Source: a virus | IMG/VR virus record: IMGVR_UViG_3300009370_000007 | Span: 1-64,000 of that record | Length of the DNA: 64,000 nucleotides | Reading direction: 5' to 3' (one strand) | Shown: piece after piece, positions 1,644-28,309 of the stretch | Numbering within the stretch: position 1 is the stretch's first letter | How the letters are laid out: each line of letters starts with the position of its first letter | Made by a program: the position numbers and the translations under genes | Notes under the pieces: model-generated | Told to the model about the DNA's origin: nothing | What the model saw: only the letters and a program-made list of their open reading frames with translations | Database searches by the model: none

Positions 1644-2390
1644 TTACTTTACCTTTGCGTATGGTGCCCGCACATCTAAGTCTCCCTTTGCAAGAAGGTC
1701 TGCCGCCTGTGTATGCTGTGCCTTATCTGCATCAATGACAGGCATATCAGCTCGGGGTGGGGCTCCTTTAGGTGGGGTAGATCGTTGAATCTTTTTTAGT
1801 CTCGTTTCTAATTCAACTCGACCACCAATGTTTATTAACCATTGTGTTGCCTTTGCTTTATTATAGAACTTTGAGTTCATGTTCTTTCCAGTAAGAACTG
1901 CATCAACAGCATCTTCTATGGTTGCCTTGAAGATGTTTACATCTCCTCCTGCTGGAGTCCCACGACGCTTGTTACCAAACACGTCTCCCAATGCGCGAAG
2001 CACAGGAACCAGATCACCAATCTTTAACTTGGCCTCAATTCCAGAGATCGTTGCCTTGGGGTCATTGAATATCGTTGCTGCCCAACGATGATGTCCATCA
2101 AGAATTCTTTTATCTTTTGAAACAATGGCTCCAAGGTCGCCGCCTTTGACACCATTGATTGCCATGCCTAACGCCTTGCCGAGATAAACCGAATCTTGCG
2201 ATGCTTTAAGGTTTGTCGCCTTCCAAGTCTTTGGGGTCGCCTGTACAATATCATCCGTCTCATTACCATCCATTTTTCCTTTTCTTGTAAATATCTTTTT
2301 CAATATATCAGTTATTGGATTAGGGAAATATTTTTTATTTATTTCCTTAGTCCGTAGCTCTTCATTTAAATGATGCTTAAAACTTTTCAT
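1644..2390 (-). CDS. Putative internal head protein with ParB/Srx-like domain
   Basis: N-terminal MKSFKHHLNE capsid-targeting-like peptide; IVSKDKRILDGHHRWAA ParB-type motif; own TATAAATA promoter. Confidence 0.7.
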   Translation of the reverse strand: MKSFKHHLNEELRTKEINKKYFPNPITDILKKIFTRKGKMDGNETDDIVQATPKTWKATNLKASQDSVYLGKALGMAINGVKGGDLGAIVSKDKRILDGHHRWAATIFNDPKATISGIEAKLKIGDLVPVLRALGDVFGNKRRGTPAGGDVNIFKATIEDAVDAVLTGKNMNSKFYNKAKATQWLINIGGRVELETRLKKIQRSTPPKGAPPRADMPVIDADKAQHTQAADLLAKGDLDVRAPYAKVK

Positions 2391-2421
2391 GCTATCCCTC
2401 TAAGTAAAGGTTCTACAACAT

Positions 2422-2429
2422 TATTTATA
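2422..2429 (-). promoter_or_regulatory. T4-type late promoter TATAAATA
   Basis: Exact gp55 consensus in the intergenic gap upstream of the ParB-like gene. Confidence 0.75.
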
Positions 2430-2435
2430 TTATAA

Positions 2436-2777
2436 TTAATCCACAATCTTTAATACTGTATCAATCAACCATCCTACCAAACCTGCCAACACAACCACCA
2501 TAGAAAGGATGGTATATACCTTTGATTTGAATTGGTCAAATTCGTGTTTAAGTTCTTCTGTATCCACTCGCTTGGCTTTTAATGTATGCAGATTATTCAG
2601 GCTCTCTCGCATATCAATCACGTCTTGTTTTGTGACCGAGGACATTCCGCTGTTATCAACAATCATTCTCAGGTTCCTAAAGTCATGGCGCAACTCTTTC
2701 AGTTCTTGTTCAAGTGCCCCGAACTCTCTGTCTGTAATAGACCAAGGCCATCTATTTTCCTGTTCTTCTTTTGCCAT
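2436..2777 (-). CDS. Coiled-coil protein with C-terminal transmembrane helix
   Basis: Heptad-like N-terminal part followed by VYTILSMVVVLAGLVGWLI. Confidence 0.65.
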   Translation of the reverse strand: MAKEEQENRWPWSITDREFGALEQELKELRHDFRNLRMIVDNSGMSSVTKQDVIDMRESLNNLHTLKAKRVDTEELKHEFDQFKSKVYTILSMVVVLAGLVGWLIDTVLKIVD

Positions 2778-2784
2778 TGAATTA

Positions 2785-3054
2785 TTACTCTGGGTTGGTT
2801 GGTCGTTGATTCTCTTCTTCTAGAATATCAGAGATTCGTTGCTCGTATGAATCTCCCCATAACTTCCGTTCAAATACCTGTTGCTGGTTCAGTTGTTCTA
2901 CAATAGTAGTCAGCTTGTCCGTGTTCTCATGGGAGTCTTCTGCCCGGAACACCCAATGGGATACACCAACAATAATTCCAATGAACGTCGCTGCCGTAAT
3001 GATGGAAGTCATAATCCGCATCGGGCTAATTTTCAATTCAACTGTCTTTTCCAT
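2785..3054 (-). CDS. Single-TM hypothetical protein
   Basis: Likely start MEKTVELK at 3054 (GAGGA RBS); hydrophobic helix IMTSIITAATFIGIIVGVS. Confidence 0.6.
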   Translation of the reverse strand: MEKTVELKISPMRIMTSIITAATFIGIIVGVSHWVFRAEDSHENTDKLTTIVEQLNQQQVFERKLWGDSYEQRISDILEEENQRPTNPE

Positions 3055-3064
3055 TTTGTCCTCT

Positions 3065-3226
3065 CTATTCATCCACTTCAGATATATGTTTTGCCCAATC
3101 GTCCCCATACTTCTCTTTCAATTCTTTAATAATTTCATGAAGTGCATTTCCCATTTCCTTTGGTGTGACCTCAACATTATCCTCATCGCCATAAATTTCT
3201 TGTAATGGTTGTTTCTTAGTCGTCAT
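3065..3226 (-). CDS. Small hypothetical protein (53 aa)
   Basis: Below the ORF-track cutoff; MTTKKQPLQEIYGDE...EVDE*, GAGGA RBS, fills the operon gap. Confidence 0.5.
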   Translation of the reverse strand: MTTKKQPLQEIYGDEDNVEVTPKEMGNALHEIIKELKEKYGDDWAKHISEVDE

Positions 3227-3383
3227 AATTTAAATCCTCTTCTGTTATTTCTAAAATATCTTCTTCCTCAATACCAAGACCTTCGACCATGCTATCCCTT
3301 ACAAATACCGGAAGATCCTTTTGATCTTGGATTGAACTCTCAATGACTTCATGTGGAAATTTTGATTTAGACTTCTTTCCCAT
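3216..3383 (-). CDS. Small acidic hypothetical protein (55 aa)
   Basis: Below the ORF-track cutoff; MGKKSKSKFPHEVIESS...LNYDD*, overlaps both neighbours as in a coupled operon. Confidence 0.45.
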   Translation of the reverse strand: MGKKSKSKFPHEVIESSIQDQKDLPVFVRDSMVEGLGIEEEDILEITEEDLNYDD

Positions 3384-3624
3384 TTGATAATACATCCATA
3401 ATTGATCTATTAATAGACTCCTTTGTAGTTACTACTTGCTCTACAAATAAAGTTTCGCCATTTCTAATTCTTTTCATATCATTAATGAAATTTTGAGTAA
3501 TCGGTTTTCCATCAGTTCCCTTTTGACTCATTTCGATTTTGGTCTGATCTTCTTCTGTAATGCGTTCTTTATTGACAGGCTCTTCACCCTGCATCATTCT
3601 ATATGTATCGGTCAAACTTGCCAT
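3367..3624 (-). CDS. Hypothetical protein
   Basis: 85-aa ORF with AGGAG RBS, coupled to the upstream stop. Confidence 0.6.
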   Translation of the reverse strand: MASLTDTYRMMQGEEPVNKERITEEDQTKIEMSQKGTDGKPITQNFINDMKRIRNGETLFVEQVVTTKESINRSIMDVLSNGKEV

Positions 3625-3625
3625 A

Positions 3626-4135
3626 TTACTCTTCTCCTATTTCTGGTGGTGTTACTTCTGGTTGTCTCAGTCTAGGTTCTCTACGATTATAATGTTGAGT
3701 TACAATAGAAAGATTTTTTCTGTCATTATTTAATGGATTGTTGTCCTTATGGTGGACATCCTTTCCATTAATTTCATCATTGCTTTTAACCTTCTTCTTC
3801 ATAATCCTTCTTGCCGAGTTTCTCGCAGACCTTCTTTCTATCTGGTCAGGCCGCGAATGATAATTCGCATATTCTCTTTTATAATCTCGCTCTGATAAAT
3901 TCTTTACGCGAGACAGAGTAATCTCATGCTGATGTTCTGGATACATTCCTTCAAGTATCTTAGATCCAGACTCAATGGCTTCATCCTGAGAATCTTCAAA
4001 TACAATAAAGAATCCTTTATATCTCTCATCCTCTTCTGAAAATACATCGAATGCAATCTTCCATGCAGACTCTTGCTTGTTGGATGTTTCTTCTTCTTCT
4101 TGAATATTCTTTATAAGTTGTTTAAATGATTTCAT
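3626..4135 (-). CDS. Putative internal head protein with C-terminal HNH nuclease-like domain
   Basis: MKSFKQLIKNIQE N-terminus; RDYKREY...R..RN.AR...GKDVHHKDNNPLNN...NL motif follows an LSE linker. Confidence 0.7.
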   Translation of the reverse strand: MKSFKQLIKNIQEEEETSNKQESAWKIAFDVFSEEDERYKGFFIVFEDSQDEAIESGSKILEGMYPEHQHEITLSRVKNLSERDYKREYANYHSRPDQIERRSARNSARRIMKKKVKSNDEINGKDVHHKDNNPLNNDRKNLSIVTQHYNRREPRLRQPEVTPPEIGEE

Positions 4136-4746
4136 TAGTTTGGACTCCCTACCATAATCTTCAAATGGTTACTTCCTCCTAGATTGCGCTCATACCATCC
4201 AACGTAATCTGGATACTTCCCGTTTGGATTTGCCCCTACCCATGTTAACTTCTTTCCGGGGAGGAGTTGTCTTACCTTCTCTTCGCTATTGACGTAGGGG
4301 ATCTTGTACTTTTTAATTAAAACATGGGCGATGGCATCGGAGACTTCAGCATAATTTCCCTTTGTTCTCAGTATCTTATTAGTTTTATTTAACATAATCT
4401 TCTTTGCTGCTGCCGATCCATCGGTTGCGCTCCCTGTAAACTTCAGGCCTCCCGGTCCTCCCTTTGCAAACTTGACTGCATCTATCTCAGGATCTTTGTC
4501 AATATCCACAACGAGCCATTGAGTAAAGTCCGAAGGAATATCAGATACTTTATTAAAATCAAGATGTCCACCAATGGGTTCATAGGTCTTCTGGATCAAA
4601 TCAAAAATATCCTTTGTTACGTCGGTGTCTGGATTGTGTAATATATGTAGGGGCGCACGAAACCATTTGCGTTTCGTTCCTTTGGTTATCGTGGGAACAG
4701 ATAGATCGCGCTTCTCTGCGATGAGGTATTGGTTAAAGGATTTCAT
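4135..4746 (-). CDS. Putative internal head protein
   Basis: MKSFNQYLIAE N-terminus, close to the T4 IP targeting peptide MKTYQEFIAE. Confidence 0.7.
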   Translation of the reverse strand: MKSFNQYLIAEKRDLSVPTITKGTKRKWFRAPLHILHNPDTDVTKDIFDLIQKTYEPIGGHLDFNKVSDIPSDFTQWLVVDIDKDPEIDAVKFAKGGPGGLKFTGSATDGSAAAKKIMLNKTNKILRTKGNYAEVSDAIAHVLIKKYKIPYVNSEEKVRQLLPGKKLTWVGANPNGKYPDYVGWYERNLGGSNHLKIMVGSPN

Positions 4747-5426
4747 TTCTTTTTGCTCTTCTCTTTTTGTTTCCTATGGGCATCCCGAGATACCTGCTTT
4801 GGATCATCGGAGATGATGTTCCCAAAGTTGCCTCGGAGCTTTAGAGTATCCTGCATGGATCTTTTTGGACTTGGAAGATTTGCACCAGAGGTCAACTTGG
4901 AAACATACTTCTCTGCTTCTGCCTTGTTTCTCATGGGAGCAGAGATGCTCATCCAGCCTACCCCCCCTAATGCATACCACTTCTTGTCCACAGGATTCTG
5001 GGCAATGATGACGCTGTGTCTTTCTTTGCGTCCGGCCTTGACAGTCTTGAAGGATGCCTTTGTGGTTTCCCCTTTTTTCTGAAGGGCAACCGAATCACCC
5101 TCCACAATGGGTCTTCCCTTCTTCTTCTGGAATGCCACATACTCTTTATAGTATGGATAACTCTTGGGTTCGTTGGCACGTTTCTTTTCTTTGGCTTGCA
5201 ATACAATACATTTAAACCATGCTTCCTGTGACGTGTATACTCCAGCCGCTCCCATCCTCTTGGCAGCACCAGCATCTACGCGAAATTTTCCATTCTCATC
5301 AGCAACTCTTCTCTGAAGTGAAAATCCACGCCTTCCTTGCTTGGCAACCCAATAGACATTGCCGGGTTTTCTCTTCTCCCCAGTAGGCTCTGCCGTTTCA
5401 TTTATATATTGGTTAAATGATTTCAT
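4743..5426 (-). CDS. Putative internal head protein (two basic modules)
   Basis: True start is probably MKSFNQYINE at 5426 (ATGA overlap with the upstream stop); internal IVE|G linker. Confidence 0.7.
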   Translation of the reverse strand: MKSFNQYINETAEPTGEKRKPGNVYWVAKQGRRGFSLQRRVADENGKFRVDAGAAKRMGAAGVYTSQEAWFKCIVLQAKEKKRANEPKSYPYYKEYVAFQKKKGRPIVEGDSVALQKKGETTKASFKTVKAGRKERHSVIIAQNPVDKKWYALGGVGWMSISAPMRNKAEAEKYVSKLTSGANLPSPKRSMQDTLKLRGNFGNIISDDPKQVSRDAHRKQKEKSKKK

Positions 5427-6274
5427 TTTGTCTCCCATACTGTTTCGTCGCGCATCTTCAATGCCTGTAGGGTTCGAGATTTTTTCTCTCCCCCCTTGGG
5501 GTTCCAGATCCGAATCACCAAATCTTTATTATCGTTCTTGCCCCCGGCAACCCAATCCATGATACCCAAAGAAGTTTCATTTCTATCCCACCCTTCGCCT
5601 GTTACTACTTCTTGATGAATGGCATTGTCGGCATCCCAGATTAAGAGCTTCCCTACCTTATCCACGATGAAGCGAGCCTGCTTCCATCTGATCTTTTTTA
5701 AAAACCCTAACGTCTCCCCGGCACTTGGATTCTCCAATCCAGTAATGCTCTCTTTCTTATGGGCACCTTTGTATGGAAGGGAGACGAACAGGGGAACCTT
5801 CTTTTCTTCAAGGCTTTCATTCCTCTTCCTTGAAAACACAAAATGCACCTCGTCACTCTTGTCAAGTTCTCTTGTGTTATATCCATTCTTTCTCGCAAAC
5901 ACCTTTGCAAACCGAGAGTAGAGTTTGGTTCGACTTCCGGCTCCATCCTTTTCTGTCTTGTCGGCAGTAAAGGAAAACAGATTGGGGCTCACCTCTTTGA
6001 CGAATACCTCAAGCAACTTGGCGACTGTTGAAAAGACTCGGACGGCACTCGTCCCCTGTGTTCCGGTGATTCCCATATCGTTACCTGTCTGAGATGCATG
6101 AAATATAATTTCCCAACCAATGCTCACCTTCAATGCCTCAAAGTGATACGTCTGTTTATTGTCCGTGACAAACGAGGCATTCCACACCTTATCCTCAATG
6201 AAGCGATTTCGTTTCCATCGGTATGGCTGGTTGCCTACTTCTTGGAGTTGTATGTATTGCACGAAGGATTTCAT
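5423..6274 (-). CDS. Putative internal head protein (two modules)
   Basis: MKSFVQYIQLQE N-terminus; internal NESLEE|K linker. Confidence 0.7.
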   Translation of the reverse strand: MKSFVQYIQLQEVGNQPYRWKRNRFIEDKVWNASFVTDNKQTYHFEALKVSIGWEIIFHASQTGNDMGITGTQGTSAVRVFSTVAKLLEVFVKEVSPNLFSFTADKTEKDGAGSRTKLYSRFAKVFARKNGYNTRELDKSDEVHFVFSRKRNESLEEKKVPLFVSLPYKGAHKKESITGLENPSAGETLGFLKKIRWKQARFIVDKVGKLLIWDADNAIHQEVVTGEGWDRNETSLGIMDWVAGGKNDNKDLVIRIWNPKGGEKKSRTLQALKMRDETVWETK

Positions 6275-6276
6275 GT

Positions 6277-6756
6277 CTACCTCTCGGTGAAGTCAACCGT
6301 TGCATTTTTCTTCTGCATATCTGCAATGAATTCACCAATAGACTTCTTGTCTGCAAGGGCAGATTTATTGTAACTCTGGATGTCAACCTCAACCTTGTAT
6401 CTCTTGTCTGTCTTGTGCTTGATCTTTGCCTTCTTGAGTTCCTTCACCAAGTCCCTTGCATAGGCCACGCCCCATCGTTGTGAATGGGAATCGCCAATGT
6501 CCATCAACCGTTCCCATACAAATTCTTCGGTATCCTCAGATTGTCGTTTCGCTGCCACAGGATCTTCGTCATAGAAGTATTCGTATACAGCATCGAAGAA
6601 TTGAACATTCCTTCTGTCGGAGAGTTCCGCTCCAGCCATGACTCTTGCATACTCCTTGGGAAACTTGTCGAGGATTGCCTGGAGCTTTGGGTTAATCCCT
6701 CCGAGGAAGTTTATTCTGAGGTCTTCGTTAATGAGATATTGACTAAAGGTTTTCAT
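6277..6756 (-). CDS. Putative internal head protein sharing a domain with the 1244-aa polyprotein
   Basis: True start is probably MKTFSQYLINE at 6756 (GGAGG RBS); the C-terminal GDSHSQRWG...VDFTER domain is paralogous to 10445-10660. Confidence 0.7.
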   Translation of the reverse strand: MKTFSQYLINEDLRINFLGGINPKLQAILDKFPKEYARVMAGAELSDRRNVQFFDAVYEYFYDEDPVAAKRQSEDTEEFVWERLMDIGDSHSQRWGVAYARDLVKELKKAKIKHKTDKRYKVEVDIQSYNKSALADKKSIGEFIADMQKKNATVDFTER

Positions 6757-6758
6757 TA

Positions 6759-7241
6759 CTATATTCCTCCCAACTCTTTCTCTGCGGCAGGATTCACTAC
6801 TTTGGCTTGAATCTTCGCCCACTTCTGAGCTTCTGCCTTGCTCTTGAATCCATTGGAGACGGGCATCCACTTGTTTTTTCCGACATGACCCATTGCATAC
6901 CACTTCTTGTCATGTGGATTCTTCTCTACGATATACTTTGTGCCAGACCATCCTTCTAGCTGAAAGTCGCGTTGGGTCTGTCCCTTATGATGAAGTTTAT
7001 TTACCTCCATATGTTTGAATGCCGCCTTGGCTTCTCTGTCGCCCTTCTTGGCTCTCTTTGCAATTTCCCTAGAAACCAAGTCGCGAGTCTTGGCCCACTT
7101 CTTGTCTGTCTTGACAAGTTTTTGCCCTGACTGTTGAGTGTTGAGCCATACGAACATTGGTTCAAGATCCTTGGTTGTCTGCCGTGCAACGTCTCTAGGA
7201 TTTGACATATCTTCAAGTATGAATTGGTAAAACGATTTCAT
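6759..7241 (-). CDS. Putative internal head protein
   Basis: MKSFYQFILE N-terminus; FQLE|G linker followed by an NP.DKKWYA.G module shared with the 4743-5426 gene. Confidence 0.7.
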   Translation of the reverse strand: MKSFYQFILEDMSNPRDVARQTTKDLEPMFVWLNTQQSGQKLVKTDKKWAKTRDLVSREIAKRAKKGDREAKAAFKHMEVNKLHHKGQTQRDFQLEGWSGTKYIVEKNPHDKKWYAMGHVGKNKWMPVSNGFKSKAEAQKWAKIQAKVVNPAAEKELGGI

Positions 7242-7262
7242 TGATTGTTTCTTTCTTTCTTT

Positions 7263-7604
7263 TTATGGACTATGTGGTGGCTCGCCCTTTTTTAATGAGC
7301 GAAGATCCCTCTTTGCCTGACTATATTCTTTTCTTGCTTTTTTATATTGGCGTCGTAGTTCTCTTCTTTCGTCCACTAAATTCCTTCCATGCATACTATA
7401 TGCAAAAACTCCTTTTCCGCCTTGTTCTCTTGGAGTGAGCAGCGTTTGTATTTCATTCTGTCTTTGTTGTATGTTTGCAATTGAAGTTCTTATGCCTTCT
7501 AGGTTTCTTTCCTTGGCTTCAACCTTCTTTTGTTGAGTTGGGGAAAGTTTTTTCTTTCTGCCAAACAATTCATCAACTTGTTGATACTCTGTAAATGATT
7601 TCAT
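7263..7604 (-). CDS. Putative internal head protein (basic, helical)
   Basis: MKSFTEYQQVDE N-terminus; K/R-rich. Confidence 0.65.
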   Translation of the reverse strand: MKSFTEYQQVDELFGRKKKLSPTQQKKVEAKERNLEGIRTSIANIQQRQNEIQTLLTPREQGGKGVFAYSMHGRNLVDERRELRRQYKKARKEYSQAKRDLRSLKKGEPPHSP

Positions 7605-7609
7605 TGTCC

Positions 7610-10600
7610 TTACTCTCCAATTTCTTCGGTATAATAATCGAGTAATTCCTCTGCAATTGCCTGCTTGGTTTCCTTATTGATCTGCCTAGCCCATCCTGGG
7701 CTGGCGTGTTCTTTCTCATACTTCTTAATTCCATCTTTGACAAGATACATGAATGCCTTGATTGCCTTTAGTCCATCATAGGTTGCATCGCCAACCTTCT
7801 TTGAAAGGTTCTTGATAATGGATGTGGTGCGTTGTCGATAGAGTTGTCCGTCATTGGTGATATAGAGAACGAGTTCCCTGACCGTATTCTGATCGACAGC
7901 TTCTTTTAGATTTACAATATATTCTTCCGATACCTTATGCTTCTTCTTGGCCTTCTGTCCTGCACGATCCGCCTTTGATCTGGAATCTTCTGTTCCCGTA
8001 TCCACTACTGTCTGTTTCCCCTTTCCTCCTTCATGCTCAACCCTCTGAAGAATCCATTTGTATGATCCGTCTTCCTGTTTCATCGTCCGTACCATCAGAA
8101 CACCACCATGTCGTTTGGCTCCTGCGCGTAACTCGTCAATGTTCTCGACTTCTTCATTAACATTAATCTTTGAAGTATCGACGGTGCTACTATAGTTGTC
8201 CACAGGAAGATTATACTTTCTTGCCAGAGTTCCAATAGGAGAAACAGGCAACATGAAATGCTCCTGGGCAGCATCAAGGAATGCAACGACGGCAGCCTTC
8301 CCTGTTAGCCTCATTCGGTTTCCCTTCTTGAGTGTCTTGACAATATCGTTGAGTGCTTCCATGACTTGAACTGCAATGGGAGAACCAATTGGCAATGTCT
8401 TTTCCTTTTTGACTACTGCGGACTGTAGCATGACATAGAGTGTTGCCATTCGTACATCTTCAATATTCTTTGGAAGTCGAACTGCCTCATTGATTGATTC
8501 TAGTTCAACTCCTTCTCCCAGCTCTGTCCAGATTTTTGCAACATCTTTTGGTACTCCACCTCGCTCAAAATTATCATTCTTCTTTAGCCATTTCCTGATG
8601 AGGGGTCCGACATCTGCCTTTGGTCCCTTCCTCTTGCGAAGGGCATCAAACTTGCTAAAAAGTTCATCGTCTCCAAGGATTCCCTTCAATTTTGCCTCGG
8701 CTCCTTCCTTGGATGACTCTGGATCGTTATAGTTGCTCACTCCAACAGGAAAAGGTTTCTTCAAGAGTTTTCGTAACTTCTTGATTGTTGCTGGCTTGTT
8801 AGGAATAGACCATGTGCCTTCTTTGAGTTCGCTCTCCTGGGCAATCTGGGCAGCCAAGGCCTTCTTTCCCTCCTTGGCGGCATACTTGACTACTGCTCGC
8901 TTCAATGCTCGCTGGTCAATTTCTCCACCCTTGACAACTCCTGTGGTGTCGATCTTGCAAAGGGCATCCTTGAATTTCATTCCACCCTTGATTAGCATTG
9001 CAATGGTGGCTCCTAGTTTCTTGTAGTCGGTTCGTTCTTCAAGAGGAGGAAGAATCTCTTCTTTGACCTTCTTTTTCTTTTTTGCGGCCGCGGCGCGCTT
9101 TTGGGAATCTTCTTCCGAGCGCCGCTTTCCCATCCTGAGCAATCGACGCTGTAGGTCTGCCATTACGGCCGGATCGTCTCCGTCTCCACCACGGGGCTTC
9201 CCCTTGTAGGCTCGATTGAATTCCATTTCGTCAATCTCTACTTCTTCTTTGAACCCGAGTGGCTTATAGTATGTATAGACCAATTGTCCAGACTTATCCT
9301 CTACACCAATCGTAAGGGAATCATTCTTGCCATGCTTCTCCAGAAAATCATAGATGATTGCTGGAACCTGAGTGGAAACCATTGCTGGCTTGGACTGTGC
9401 CACTACCTTCTTTCCCTTCAAGGCTACAACAGTATATGGGGGAGTCCCCTTCTTAATGTCGCGGACTCCTTGAACACCGATTTTCTTTTTATAGATGGCT
9501 TCAGGAATGTACTCTTCCTTGACTGCTGCACCCTTCACAATGATCCCTCTCATACCCAGACCCTTGACGTTCTTTAGGAAAGTCTCTGCATCCTTCTTGC
9601 TGGCTAGTGTTGCAACCATGATGCGTCCCTTTTTGGTATAGGAATACTTGACGGTGTACGGATCTGATGCCTGACCGGGACGATTGCCTACCGCAAACTT
9701 CGCCTGCTTGGTTTTGGGTGTGTCTCGATATTCTGTTACAATAGTTTCTTCTCTTACATCACCCTTAATAATCTTTCCACCCATACCGAGTCCCTTGACA
9801 TCTTTAAGGAACTTCTTTGCATCGGCTTCTCCACTAAGGGTTGCCCACATCTTTCGACCTTGCTTGTCATACCAATACTTGACGGTATAGGGATCTTCGG
9901 CTCCTCTTTTCTCTGTGATGATAACAGGAGTCAGGATCGTTGCACCTGTCTTGGGGTCCATTGCTGTTGCATATGGCTTTCCCTTGATCTTGCTCTTGAA
10001 GTCCTTGTGCAGTCTTGCATAGTCCTTCTTGGACATGGTATAGTCATCACCATCCCATCGTCCACCTCTTGCATCGCGATCCTTGGAGGGTTCAAACTTA
10101 CTGCCACGGTGATCTCCTCGATATTTCTTGGCGTGTGACGGTGAGACACCAATGCGTCCCTTGGCCATTTTATGGGCACCACTATCCAGTCCACCTTCGC
10201 GAATTCCTTTTGCTGAAACATTGCCCTTGGCTGAAACTGTCATCTTCTGCAAATTGAAATGTTTCTTTGTTGCGGCAATTCTCTGAGAATGACTGCCTTT
10301 TTGTTTTTCATAGAAGGCCTTGATTTCATCATTGGAAGGAATCCCGCGCAACCGCATATGAGCCAGACGCGCCTTCTCCTTCTCATTTCCCATGCCGCCC
10401 TCATTAACAAATTCCTCAAATCGTTTTTTGCGTCCCATTGCGTCCCTTTCTGAAAAATCAACTCTTCCGTTGTTCTTCTTTATATCTGCGAGTAGATCAC
10501 TAACAGGCATTTCTTTTGCGAGAGATGAACTGTTGTAACTAGTTATATCAAAACTAACATAGTATGCATTGTCCGTCTTATGTTTAACATTTGCCTTCTT

Positions 10601-11344
10601 GAGCTTTTTTATGAGATCCCGTGCATGAATCTTTCCCCACCTCTGGGAATGATGATCTCCTGCATCGAAGTTGACCATGACGGCCTCGTTGATTGCAACT
10701 GGTTTTGCTCCCGGTCCTGATTGAGCCAGAATGACCCATCCAGGTCCTTCGGGTAGTTTATCGCTGACTAGACCCGTTGCTCTCTGTGCAGCCACGGCAC
10801 CATGATTCTTGCCAACCTTTGCGGCACCAATAGATGATGCCCTTTTAGAAACGTGACCGATAACCTTGTGGTATCCCCTCTTGCCTTTGATCTCTGCATA
10901 GACAGGAACCTTTCCCTTGCCTACGTCGGTGGCTTCGTTAATAATCTCGTCTCCCTCGTCATTGGTAGTGATTTGTTTCGATTCTTCCTTGATTGCGAGA
11001 ATTGTCTCATAGGAAGTCTCGCCAGAATTCTTATGGGCAACAACTTCTTTCCCTAATGGGCTGTTAGTTTTATCGCGAATCTCGATGCTATGAGAATCTC
11101 CGAGTCCTGTGCGCTTACGATAATTGGCATCGGGCTCATCTCGGATGTATACGATTTCTTTGCCAGACACTTTGGATAACTGTAGTCGTCTGAGGAGTTC
11201 TCGATATTGCTTTAGAATTTCCGGCGCGTCTGCTCTGAGTTTTCTTTGAATTGCAACAATCTGTTTGGTTGTGGGGTAGTTAATCTGCCCTAAATTTAAA
11301 GGCGCTTCATTCATGCTAATCAAGTTTTGCTTGGTTACTTTCAT
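7610..11344 (-). CDS. 1244-aa multi-module putative capsid-internal polyprotein
   Basis: About 14 acidic linkers ending [ILVM]-x-E separate small basic domains; one module is internally duplicated; downstream of a TATAAATA late promoter. Confidence 0.7.
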   Translation of the reverse strand: MKVTKQNLISMNEAPLNLGQINYPTTKQIVAIQRKLRADAPEILKQYRELLRRLQLSKVSGKEIVYIRDEPDANYRKRTGLGDSHSIEIRDKTNSPLGKEVVAHKNSGETSYETILAIKEESKQITTNDEGDEIINEATDVGKGKVPVYAEIKGKRGYHKVIGHVSKRASSIGAAKVGKNHGAVAAQRATGLVSDKLPEGPGWVILAQSGPGAKPVAINEAVMVNFDAGDHHSQRWGKIHARDLIKKLKKANVKHKTDNAYYVSFDITSYNSSSLAKEMPVSDLLADIKKNNGRVDFSERDAMGRKKRFEEFVNEGGMGNEKEKARLAHMRLRGIPSNDEIKAFYEKQKGSHSQRIAATKKHFNLQKMTVSAKGNVSAKGIREGGLDSGAHKMAKGRIGVSPSHAKKYRGDHRGSKFEPSKDRDARGGRWDGDDYTMSKKDYARLHKDFKSKIKGKPYATAMDPKTGATILTPVIITEKRGAEDPYTVKYWYDKQGRKMWATLSGEADAKKFLKDVKGLGMGGKIIKGDVREETIVTEYRDTPKTKQAKFAVGNRPGQASDPYTVKYSYTKKGRIMVATLASKKDAETFLKNVKGLGMRGIIVKGAAVKEEYIPEAIYKKKIGVQGVRDIKKGTPPYTVVALKGKKVVAQSKPAMVSTQVPAIIYDFLEKHGKNDSLTIGVEDKSGQLVYTYYKPLGFKEEVEIDEMEFNRAYKGKPRGGDGDDPAVMADLQRRLLRMGKRRSEEDSQKRAAAAKKKKKVKEEILPPLEERTDYKKLGATIAMLIKGGMKFKDALCKIDTTGVVKGGEIDQRALKRAVVKYAAKEGKKALAAQIAQESELKEGTWSIPNKPATIKKLRKLLKKPFPVGVSNYNDPESSKEGAEAKLKGILGDDELFSKFDALRKRKGPKADVGPLIRKWLKKNDNFERGGVPKDVAKIWTELGEGVELESINEAVRLPKNIEDVRMATLYVMLQSAVVKKEKTLPIGSPIAVQVMEALNDIVKTLKKGNRMRLTGKAAVVAFLDAAQEHFMLPVSPIGTLARKYNLPVDNYSSTVDTSKINVNEEVENIDELRAGAKRHGGVLMVRTMKQEDGSYKWILQRVEHEGGKGKQTVVDTGTEDSRSKADRAGQKAKKKHKVSEEYIVNLKEAVDQNTVRELVLYITNDGQLYRQRTTSIIKNLSKKVGDATYDGLKAIKAFMYLVKDGIKKYEKEHASPGWARQINKETKQAIAEELLDYYTEEIGE

Positions 11345-11433: not shown

Positions 11434-11472
11434 GGGGGACCGGGGACCTCAACAATGGTCCCCCGGTCCCCC
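11434..11472. other. Strong GC-rich stem-loop in the 5' leader of the polyprotein operon
   Basis: GGGGGACCGGGGACC-TCAACAAT-GGTCCCCCGGTCCCCC. Confidence 0.7.
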
Positions 11473-11499
11473 CGAACCATTTTAAATATAATCTGTTAC

Positions 11500-11507
11500 T
11501 ATTTATA
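11500..11507 (-). promoter_or_regulatory. T4-type late promoter TATAAATA
   Basis: Exact consensus about 155 bp upstream of the polyprotein ATG. Confidence 0.75.
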
Positions 11508-14774: not shown

Positions 14775-14798
14775 ATAATATATAGGAGGTTTACAAAT

Positions 14799-14838
14799 AA
14801 AAAAACCCCCCATGTACCGAAGTGCATGAGGGGTTTCT
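14799..14838 (-). terminator. Rho-independent terminator after the porin gene
   Basis: CCCCTCATGCAC-TTCG-GTACATGGGGGG followed by a T-run; cUUCGg tetraloop. Confidence 0.85.
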
Positions 14839-14872
14839 TTGGGGGTTCAGCGTCAGTAGTATATATGTCTAA

Positions 14873-16021
14873 TTAGAATGCAAACTGTACGCCTACGACG
14901 AATCCTTCATTCTTGACATCCTGTAGTTCATCATTGAAATATGATGCAGTCAGCTTGGTGTTGGTTGCCTCATCAAGAACAAGATTCACACCAGCATCCC
15001 ATCGCTGCTGCTCACCATCATTGGAACCCTCAAATTGAAAGTTCTGATAGCGAACGAACGGTTCTGGGGTCACGCTCAACTTGCCTGCCTTGAGAGCAAA
15101 CTTGTCAAGAGCATAGGCTCCAAGAACATATCCACCGATACCTTCATTGAGTCCTACACCCGGAACATATGCGGCATCATCCAGATCATACTGGAAGAAA
15201 CCACCATTTACGGTTGCAACACCCGGGCCAATTGCCGTGGAATAGGCAAGGTCAAGGTTCCATCCGAGATAATCGGAGGTTCCTACTGCCTCGTTCTGTG
15301 TCTGTAGTGCAAAACCAAGATCAACTCCACCGAGGTCGAGCGCAATTCGCGTGGCGAATAGGGCATCGTCGGCATTATTGACTCCTTGGAATACACCAAC
15401 AGAATAGTCTACGCCGAAGTCATCAGATAGGAATCCCTTTGTTGCATCGGCAACGCCAGAAACCTTGTGATCGACTCCACCATAGACGGCACCACCATCA
15501 AGGCGTCCATAGCCATTGACGGATGGATACTTGGCAACCACAGTAGGAAGATCCCATGTGATTTGTCCGTAGGTATCGTTGAGGGTTGAACGGTTAGCGG
15601 GAGCAATAAATCGACCAGCCTTTACTGTATCCACAAAAGGTACTGGAAGATCCAAAGAAACAGCGGCATCGAGAAGATCGAAATTATTAGTGGCAGTACC
15701 ATCGTACTGGGCGCTAATATCTGCACTCACACCATAAGAGGTATCAACCCCAAAGGTGAGACGTGCATTGTCTACTGCAAAATCATTTGTCTTATCTGGC
15801 TTGATTTCAAAATTACCATCGGCGCGAACCCCGCCACCGATAGAAACTGTGATGTCATCGTTGACTTCAACGACAGCAATATTGCCCATGACACTACTAC
15901 CGCTGTCATCTGCACTTGAAGGGGCAGCCCAAACCAACGCAAAGCCAAACAATATTGCTGTTGCAACATAGGCTACGAGATTGAACTTCCGGTCTATTTG
16001 ATTTTCATCATTACTATTCAT
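14873..16021 (-). CDS. Outer-membrane beta-barrel porin (OprO/OprP- or FmdC-like)
   Basis: Signal peptide (FALVWAAPSSA|DD), amphipathic beta-strand pattern, FAVDNARL / LLDAAV / KAGRF.AP..RS.L / GR..G motifs, C-terminal VGVQFAF with terminal Phe; AAGGAG RBS. Confidence 0.8.
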   Translation of the reverse strand: MNSNDENQIDRKFNLVAYVATAILFGFALVWAAPSSADDSGSSVMGNIAVVEVNDDITVSIGGGVRADGNFEIKPDKTNDFAVDNARLTFGVDTSYGVSADISAQYDGTATNNFDLLDAAVSLDLPVPFVDTVKAGRFIAPANRSTLNDTYGQITWDLPTVVAKYPSVNGYGRLDGGAVYGGVDHKVSGVADATKGFLSDDFGVDYSVGVFQGVNNADDALFATRIALDLGGVDLGFALQTQNEAVGTSDYLGWNLDLAYSTAIGPGVATVNGGFFQYDLDDAAYVPGVGLNEGIGGYVLGAYALDKFALKAGKLSVTPEPFVRYQNFQFEGSNDGEQQRWDAGVNLVLDEATNTKLTASYFNDELQDVKNEGFVVGVQFAF

Positions 16022-26396: not shown

Positions 26397-27596
26397 TTAC
26401 TCTTGAATAACATTCTTCTGTGTTCGAGCTAATGCGCCAACATAAGCAGACATTGTGCCGGTGGTTTCTTCAAAGATGCCACCCTCAACTTCCTGCTCCT
26501 CTACAATAAATTGCTGATTAGTTGTTCCTGTCTTGGGGAAGTAGTTTTCCCTGAGTGTGCCAAGAGCATTTGCATACTGCTCGACATCTTCAAAGTCTAC
26601 TCCTTCGGACAGTTCCTTCAACTTCTCATACTCTGTATCGACAAGACCATCAGAACTCTGAATAAGGAGTTCAGTCTTCTGATACTCATTGATCTGCTTC
26701 TGCATATCAATTGTCCTTTCAATACTTTCATTTAGTTCACCCTCTAGCTTATCGACACGATCTGCAAGAGTATCTGCTACATCGAGCTTCTCATCTGGAA
26801 TCTCGATATAATGTTCTGCGAAGAGATTGCGTAGTCCTGTAATGAACTCTTCACTAATCTCTGCCTGTAGACCCTTGGTGATTGCAAGCTCATTTTCCTT
26901 CTGCCATTCATCTACGGCATAGGAAAGATACTCGTCAACCTTCTCGGTCATATCAGTAAGATTTTCTTCGCGAGCTTCGGTTAGCTCTTCGTCAAACTTG
27001 CTTTCAATCTTCTCTAGCTCCTCATTTACCTTGGCAATGAGCGCAGCCTCAAAGATTATTGCTGCCTTTGACTTAAAGTCATCGGAAAGATTAACTTCGT
27101 CGTTAAACATTGCAGCAATATCAGCAGAAAAATCAACATCCTCTGCCTTTAGCCTAGTCTTCTCTCCCTTGTCGCCCTTCTTTCCAGCCTTGACCTTCTT
27201 TGTTACTTCTGTAGTCTTATCTACAGACTTGAAAATCTCGTCTGGATCTGCAACATTGGGATCGTCCTTTGCTTCGTCAAGATCGTCGTCCTCTTCAAGA
27301 GTAGTAAGAGAGTGCATGATCTTATCGAAGTGAGACTCTAGCTTGGTCTTCTTGGTATCCTGAAGCTGATTAAAAATAGCGCGAACCATAGCGGGCTTAG
27401 TCAACGATTCCTTAACCCCCTCTTCTTCATCTTCATCTTCTTCGTCTTCTTCTTCATCATCATCATCCTCAAAAGGTTCTTCGTCTTCTTCAGTTTTCTC
27501 CTGAAGGACTTCTTCTTCTGACTCAGAAGTTTCGCGAAGAAGCTCTTCGATTTCTTCGTCTGTGATGGCTTCTGTTGAAACGGTTTCTTCTGACAT
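26397..27596 (-). CDS. 22: Prohead core scaffold protein with acidic N-terminal extension
   Basis: F..KAAIIFEAAL, KVDEYLSY...EW..EN, FITGLRNLFAEHYIEIP; syntenic position. Confidence 0.93.
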   Translation of the reverse strand: MSEETVSTEAITDEEIEELLRETSESEEEVLQEKTEEDEEPFEDDDDEEEDEEDEDEEEGVKESLTKPAMVRAIFNQLQDTKKTKLESHFDKIMHSLTTLEEDDDLDEAKDDPNVADPDEIFKSVDKTTEVTKKVKAGKKGDKGEKTRLKAEDVDFSADIAAMFNDEVNLSDDFKSKAAIIFEAALIAKVNEELEKIESKFDEELTEAREENLTDMTEKVDEYLSYAVDEWQKENELAITKGLQAEISEEFITGLRNLFAEHYIEIPDEKLDVADTLADRVDKLEGELNESIERTIDMQKQINEYQKTELLIQSSDGLVDTEYEKLKELSEGVDFEDVEQYANALGTLRENYFPKTGTTNQQFIVEEQEVEGGIFEETTGTMSAYVGALARTQKNVIQE

Positions 27597-27655: not shown

Positions 27656-28309
27656 TTACAATTTTGAAAGAAAGTTCTTAAATACCCTTAATTGAACGGC
27701 TTCTCTATCGGCTCGTTTTGATTTTTCAATTTGAGATTTAAGTTCTTGAATGGTTCTTTCTTTAATTATACCATTTTCCCAAATCCATTCTTTTCCTTCC
27801 ATCATTCCTTCAACAAATGCATCGGGAGCAGATGGATCTGCAACAATATCTGCCGCAGTAGCAAGATAAAAATCATCTTGCACTACATTTACGCCTCGTC
27901 GTGGCTTCAATGAACCCATTCCGCGAGACGAAACACCTAACTTGGCACCCTCATCAATAAGATTCTTTGCAATCTTTCCATATGGGGTGTCCATTAACTT
28001 TGCTTTTCCTACCCAGTTATCATTATCTGGGCTTAATTCCTTAATCATATGAGAAACTCTTTCTAGATTAATGACCGGCCCATCGGGATGACCTAGTTCT
28101 CCGAAGGCTCGATTTTGCTTAATATACTTGTCGTTATATTTCGCAACTTCCCTTCCGAGAGTCTCTCGGGGATAGACTCGTCCATTTCTATTCTTTGTTT
28201 CTGCCTGCATGAAGACGCCCTTAATATAATAATCCTTCTTGCCGGATTTAGTTTCTTCTACCAAAACTTCAATTTGATCGTCGTCTACTACTTCGGTAAT
28301 GAGTTTCAT
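27656..28309 (-). CDS. 21: Prohead maturation protease
   Basis: MKLITE, IKGVFMQAE.KNRNGRVY, GELGHP, GVSSRGMGS, DIVADPSAPDAFV. Confidence 0.98.
   Translation of the reverse strand: MKLITEVVDDDQIEVLVEETKSGKKDYYIKGVFMQAETKNRNGRVYPRETLGREVAKYNDKYIKQNRAFGELGHPDGPVINLERVSHMIKELSPDNDNWVGKAKLMDTPYGKIAKNLIDEGAKLGVSSRGMGSLKPRRGVNVVQDDFYLATAADIVADPSAPDAFVEGMMEGKEWIWENGIIKERTIQELKSQIEKSKRADREAVQLRVFKNFLSKL

Follow-up and report, generated by a model that had tools for sequence, protein, structure and literature searches.

A small protein module shared by a stand-alone cargo gene and a putative protease-cut polyprotein in an uncultured marine T4-like phage

The DNA analysed here (the window) is the first 64 kb (64,000 nucleotides, nt) of the 107-kb IMG/VR record IMGVR_UViG_3300009370_000007, which is about 59% complete. 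Its minus strand carries a stand-alone cargo gene for a protein of 159 amino acids (aa; 6277..6756) and a long gene (7610..11344) for a 1244-aa protein in which a targeting-like leader is followed by a chain of ~13 small modules, most of them basic. The two share one unit, here called module C, which forms the C-terminus of the small protein (aa 86-159; 6280..6501, minus strand) and the third unit of the long one (aa 227-300; 10445..10666, minus strand). By analogy with T4, both proteins are probably loaded into the capsid and cut at head-protease sites, and the joint after module C in the long gene reads as a former gene boundary turned into an in-frame linker, or the reverse.

Both peptides on which the initial annotation drew (about 6280-6495 and 10445-10660) are encoded at those positions on the minus strand, which carries every gene of this region; the plus-strand frames there are stop-rich. 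In BLASTP comparison of the 159-aa and 1244-aa products (composition-based statistics), the last 74 residues of the small protein align without gaps to aa 227-300 of the long one, with 42/74 identities (57%) and 73% positives (E 7e-26). The proposal that the same domain occurs in a polyprotein and in a stand-alone gene is thus borne out, although on the minus strand. Five aligned module C sequences have 38 invariant columns, including a strictly conserved G-D-x-H-S-Q-R-W-G at the start of the module. The two copies share just 64% nucleotide identity, which rules out a recent or artefactual duplication. Synonymous sites between them are saturated (proportion of synonymous differences, pS, 0.80; nonsynonymous divergence, dN, 0.31), so that this pair permits neither a dN/dS ratio nor a test of positive selection; the comparison indicates an old split under purifying selection. 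The further suggestion that the copies diverged under host-driven diversification finds no support in such old, conserved sequences.

Module C was found in two architectures, the only two forms matched by a local profile: the long protein (window, P0007 and P0008) and the C-terminus of the small protein (window and its orthologues P0004-P0006). No further copies were detected in word-based protein searches at near and longer lengths, in pattern scans of IMG/VR and JGI metagenomes, in GenBank phages at DNA or protein level, or with the local profile, which was run on the complete 107-kb record, on three related loci and on 150 hits.

In the long protein, module C lies between I-N-E (aa 218-220; 10685..10693, minus strand) and V-N-E (aa 313-315), two linkers of the [IV]NE type as originally described. 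The first, between modules B and C, is a predicted protease site: stand-alone module B proteins have a hydrophobic-x-E tail that aligns to I-N-E 220, where P0019 ends and P0018 continues with a different module, and model confidence drops at this point (see below). On the other side, similarity to the small protein ceases exactly at the stop codon of the small gene; as the stand-alone copy terminates at the last aligned residue, module C does not belong to a larger fold that extends across the linkers. DNA comparison of the two junctions points to a fossil gene boundary after module C (aa 301-315; 10400..10444, minus strand). The small gene ends in E-R and a stop codon, followed after 2 nt by the ATG of the next leader-tagged gene. 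In the long gene two codons (D-A) come next after E-R, then a Met and a peptide rich in Lys and Arg that contains two Phe and ends in V-N-E. Module D begins directly behind this junction, as it also does in relatives. The two module C copies would accordingly be related through adjacent leader-tagged cargo genes having fused or split, with the leader-like peptide after module C now presumably serving as a cleavable linker. The pair is one instance only, yet a concrete evolutionary footprint (stop codon, spacer, Met, leader turned linker) of how cargo genes could fuse into, or leave, protease-cut polyproteins. At the other end of the chain, the peptide before module I likewise resembles the N-terminal leaders of the stand-alone module I proteins P0025 and P0039.

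The leader of the long protein is M-K-V-T-K-Q-N-L-I-S-M-N-E, with M-N-E at aa 11-13. An independent ENA assembly also encodes the long open reading frame (ORF), which is therefore not an assembly artefact: its product, P0007 (1300 aa, from a 9451-bp contig), is 92% identical with gaps counted and differs by few substitutions and by 60 aa inserted in frame. A phmmer/HMMER search with residues 1-1200 against 1.84 billion protein representatives (threshold E <= 1e-3) gave 328 hits, which BLASTP re-mapping placed on discrete segments edged at motif positions. This mapping delimits, all on the minus strand, module A (aa 11-122), module B (aa 134-220; the compact domain itself aa 138-220, 10685..10933), module C (aa 227-300), module D (aa 311-385), an unlettered segment (about aa 405-480), several units including a tandem repeat (aa 482-771), and modules G (aa 820-925), H (aa 947-1066) and I (aa 1137-1244). 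Module sizes are 60-136 aa. Each of the ~13 modules has independent homologues in differing arrangements, and homologous segments occupy very different offsets in proteins of 57-1083 aa. Thirteen candidate cut sites delimit 14 segments, and 12 of these, counting the 13-residue leader (i.e. 11/13 modules), have an isoelectric point (pI) above 9. The predicted cut positions include Glu 13, 137, 220, 315, 842, 953 and 1148.

Some variation was seen along this chain. The P0007 insertion (polyprotein aa ~128-132; window about 10950-10965) lies just upstream of an E-G-D-E-I-I-N-E joint and ends by repeating the flanking E-G, an indel polymorphism adjoining a linker. P0008 (401 aa, from a 1478-bp ENA contig) matches the polyprotein at 99% identity through residue 382; it diverges from Glu 383 onwards, within the I-R-E that closes module D, and finishes with an 18-residue tail (aa 384-401). 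Either a naturally shorter form with four modules or an artefact of the contig could account for this. Two tandem units of ~55 aa starting D-P-Y-T-V-K-Y occupy aa 482-605 (window about 9530-9900), a third, weaker unit lies further on, and relatives have one to three copies. Modules A, C and D each contain a short (G)-x-S/H-H-S-Q-R-like motif (aa 82-86, 230-236 and 349-355) that is conserved in relatives; distant homology of the three modules on the strength of this motif was rejected (hhalign probabilities 3.8% and 0.9%).

Modules of the long protein also occur singly. Module B stands alone right behind an N-terminal leader in P0019, P0041 and P0049, module H in P0031, and module I in P0024 and at 14798-15157 of the related contig L004. 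The view that the linkers mark real, portable units is therefore supported: homologous segments begin and end at linker positions, at varied offsets, and also exist as leader-tagged stand-alone genes.

The joints themselves carry a recurring signature. [IVM]-N-E occurs six times in the long ORF against 0.5 expected from composition (none of 5000 shuffles reached six), and [LIVM]-x-E-[AG] 12 times against 3.4 expected. In relatives, [LIVMF]-x-E immediately precedes 82/113 module starts (44/45 for module G), against a background of 7.3% in those proteins. The hydrophobic residue three positions before the presumed cut (P3) and the Glu next to it (P1) persist at the module starts of dozens of proteins less than 50% identical while surrounding residues vary, a pattern that speaks for selection acting on the motif. 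Viral polyproteins are characterised by units linked through a repeated short site suited to a virus-encoded protease, and such linkage shows here in both the site counts and the module starts.

The small gene starts at an ATG at 6756, with GGAGG 9 nt upstream and the stop of the upstream gene 2 nt before it; a longer, GTG-started ORF from the mechanical ORF list was rejected as it overlaps the upstream gene. Its product consists of a targeting leader (aa 1-11; MKTFSQYLINE), an acidic N-module (aa 12-82, pI 4.5; 6511..6723, minus strand) and the basic module C (pI 9.7). The orthologues P0004-P0006 have 80-86% identity and an identical C-terminal end point. Residues 25-66 of the N-module are homologous to an internal segment of other phages' polyproteins (aa 273-314 of P0009, a 609-aa polyprotein, 45% identity, E 5e-10; P0014 also matches), and in both P0009 and P0014 this segment is flanked by hydrophobic-x-Glu sites. 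Judged from these matches, the N-module is likewise a travelling module.

Both genes belong to an array of nine consecutive genes (1644 to 11344) that start with a common leader, M-K-S/T-F, a few residues, an aromatic residue and hydrophobic-x-Glu; eight genes other than the long one (1644..7604, minus strand) were recognised by N-terminal comparison with the T4 capsid-targeting sequence (CTS), MKTYQEFIAE (PMC8442874). The T4-type pattern ending in hydrophobic-x-Glu is present in both the small and the long protein. In T4, the first ten residues suffice for head loading and processing depends on positions 8 and 10, Asp at position 10 being blocking (PMC9026906).

On sequence evidence the source is an uncultured marine T4-like myovirus. 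T4-like head and tail genes in the window include gp23, gp22, gp20 (portal), gp18 (sheath), gp17 (terminase) and neck proteins, and the major head protein is about 50% identical to those of cyanophages and of Pelagibacter phage HTVC008M. A prohead protease of the Peptidase_S77 (T4 gp21) family, the presumed cutting enzyme, is encoded at 27656..28309 on the minus strand (Pfam PF03420, E 3.4e-32, 112 bits against a cut-off of 27). Three of three related IMG/VR contigs (L003-L005) also encode an S77 protease and have their own leader-tagged gene arrays, which include polyproteins of 410 and 661 aa.

A sequence resembling a T4-type late promoter, TATAAATA (11500..11507, minus strand), lies 156 nt upstream of the polyprotein start. 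All six minus-strand matches of the TATAAATA type lie upstream of genes, the other five at 12-58 nt from the start; the number of late-promoter-like matches in the window (seven against four expected) is not above chance, 8/100 shuffles reaching seven. Downstream of the TATAAATA site and before the long gene begins, a G+C-rich inverted repeat (11440-11490, minus strand) sits in the presumed 5′ leader of the late transcript.

Neither protein belongs to a Pfam or PHROG family, even at E up to 5 and apart from noise-level Pfam rows, and a profile search of the sequences against PDB found nothing. In an AlphaFold2 model of long-protein aa 125-330, module B is a compact, beta-rich domain (predicted local distance difference test, pLDDT, 87-91) and confidence falls to 36 just past I-N-E 220; on this model, module B folds as its own domain ending at the linker, in agreement with the alignments and with loci L003-L005. 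The alignments behind the two structure predictions, of the small protein and of this segment, were shallow (5 and 11 rows). Foldseek comparison of the small-protein model with PDB gave no match at E <= 0.001. The model of modules B and C compared with 48,161 chains (VIA-align) gave an uninformative best Z of 3.5, which is that of module B; module C, being poorly modelled, was barely tested by this search. ESM Atlas returned only unnamed viral clusters (0.79-0.81, TM <= 0.41) and no informative neighbour. These family, PDB, fold and ESM Atlas searches thus yield no effector activity or target, and the idea that the copies are variant effectors gains nothing from them. Among 50,697 GenBank phage records there was no significant tblastn match to the small protein or to the whole long protein, and module I alone had one match, at noise level. 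Set against the 328 metagenomic hits, this suggests a cargo repertoire that seems confined to uncultured phages. Module C could be guessed to be a DNA-associated or host-defence-binding internal protein, from its basic charge and T4 precedent and nothing else.

What was observed is the shared sequence, the modular build of the long protein, the motif conserved where modules meet, modules that stand alone, a protease gene and a site resembling a late promoter; packaging, cutting and injection we infer from the T4 precedent. Both precursors would be made late, and their N-terminal targeting peptides would bring them into the prohead core. The S77 prohead protease would then cut after the Glu of hydrophobic-x-Glu, removing the leader and separating the modules of the long protein. 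The resulting basic pieces of 8-15 kDa would remain alongside the DNA in the head and pass into the host together with it. Taken as a whole, this sequence of leader loading, S77 cutting at linkers and injection of basic modules is the account we favour, with reasonable though far from full confidence.

Several observations weigh against it. T4 internal proteins are cut just once, next to the CTS (PMC8442874), so that multi-site processing of retained modules exceeds the T4 model. Taken alone, hydrophobic-x-Glu is a short motif that is just mildly enriched in the long protein (26 against 19.4 expected, P 0.05). Before module C the small protein has V-W-E, but two of four orthologues have V-W-D or V-Y-D, and this joint is thus no conserved cutting site. 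As Asp at that position blocks processing in T4 (PMC9026906), the small protein may stay in one piece, and with its leader removed it may well remain an acidic-plus-basic two-module product. Because module C was found in this lineage only, its edges do not have wide comparative support. The small protein was modelled weakly (pLDDT 59.5 overall, about 71-81 over aa 101-140, most of module C), module C was modelled poorly in its polyprotein context (pLDDT 36-63), and no match in Pfam, PHROG, PDB, Foldseek, VIA-align or ESM Atlas points to a function for either protein.

One alternative treats the long protein as a multidomain ('polyvalent'-type) virion or early protein that is never cut, with [IV]-N-E as inert leader relics or flexible linkers and the arrangement as plain domain shuffling. 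There is precedent for phage multidomain proteins that are delivered intact (PMC5512222), the linkers preceding modules D and I look like N-terminal leaders found on stand-alone relatives and could be functionless fossils, and the small-protein site is, as noted, not conserved. We nevertheless regard an uncut protein as unlikely, given that P3 and P1 are kept at module starts across highly diverged proteins and that all the related contigs examined encode a protease to match. A second possibility, an assembly protein of the scaffold or core type that is cut for degradation and expulsion like T4 gp22 and whose modules serve head assembly, would also fit multiple protease-type sites and a location in the late gene cluster; in T4, scaffold proteins are cut at numerous positions and exit from the head (PMC8442874), and redundant propeptide cleavage is known in giant phages (PMC10052503). 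This, too, has a low probability, since the window has a separate gp22-type scaffold gene (26397-27596; PHROG 237, E 1e-65), the modules are conserved, basic, foldable and exchanged among phages like accessory genes, unlike core genes, and the long gene lies within a leader-tagged accessory array that also encodes HNH-like and ParB-motif proteins. Finally, that the module C pair stems from chance, Lys-rich low complexity (both regions have such a composition) or assembly duplication is scarcely credible and was rejected, in view of the E value under composition-based statistics, the invariant columns, the DNA divergence and the recurrence of both forms in independent metagenomes.

Beyond the account of loading, cutting and injection favoured here, a more far-reaching version can be put forward only tentatively, as we rate it somewhat below even. 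In a large uncultured T4-like branch the capsid-targeting leader would double as a cleavable joint, so that cargo genes fuse or split by loss or gain of a stop codon; a single precursor would supply a dozen injected proteins in fixed stoichiometry, these would be exchanged between phages as cassettes, and module C would be a novel protein among them that binds DNA or host defences.

The closest parallels are T4 IPI, IPII, IPIII and Alt, which also have a leader of ~10 residues ending in hydrophobic-x-Glu, small basic products and an S77 (gp21-family) protease (PMC3012670, PMC9026906, PMC8442874). As in the T-even phages, whose internal proteins are a diverse set with only the leader in common (PMC3012670), the array described here is a variable set of otherwise unrelated proteins. 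No sequence homology to IPI, IPII, IPIII or Alt was found (PHROG, Pfam; tblastn against GenBank phages), but as T-even internal proteins share only the CTS (PMC3012670), this does not exclude functional analogy. The T4 proteins differ in being single-module and cut once, whereas here ~13 modules are chained in one precursor with internal sites, and modules move between stand-alone and chained states. Polyvalent proteins (Iyer et al. 2017, PMC5512222) similarly join many unrelated domains in one phage polypeptide, are thought to be packaged and delivered with DNA and undergo combinatorial shuffling, and the ~13-module long protein falls within their range of two to 15 combinatorial domains. They are, however, defined by known enzymatic or LPD domains and often have their own peptidase, whereas the proteins described here have no Pfam domain: no enzymatic, anti-restriction or LPD domain and no built-in peptidase was found (Pfam, E up to 5, apart from noise-level rows). 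In the long protein, separation of 60-136 aa modules would instead be carried out by the head-maturation protease at short linkers. In the giant phages phiKZ, 201phi2-1 and SPN3US a gp21-related protease also cuts after Glu at short motifs, sometimes repeatedly in one protein (PMC9026906, PMC10052503), but their extra cuts fragment discarded propeptides, whereas the pieces here are conserved modules that also exist as genes of their own. Full-text searches of the literature collection used here found no description of chains of leader-type cargo modules in T4-like phages.

T4 internal proteins are injected with the phage DNA and are the textbook case of injected proteins that disarm host defences, and the CTS is used for loading foreign proteins into capsids. 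If the favoured account of leader loading and cutting at linkers is true, it would account for the packaging of many small proteins at a time by uncultured marine T4-like phages, and would define a large pool of injected proteins and of natural cleavable linkers.

Two further observations concern the leader-tagged arrays. Two other leader-tagged genes of the window (4743-5426 and 6759-7241, minus strand) have in common a 'KWY' unit of ~40 aa (53% identity, E 9e-11), which stands alone behind a leader in L005 (9729-9956) and follows module B via an S-V-N-E joint in P0018. The leader-tagged gene at 3626-4135 (minus strand) combines an acidic N-half with a C-half that is basic and HNH-like (HNH_3 of Pfam at E 8e-5, short of the cut-off), and in L004 (19494-19814) this C-half directly follows a leader in a 106-aa gene.

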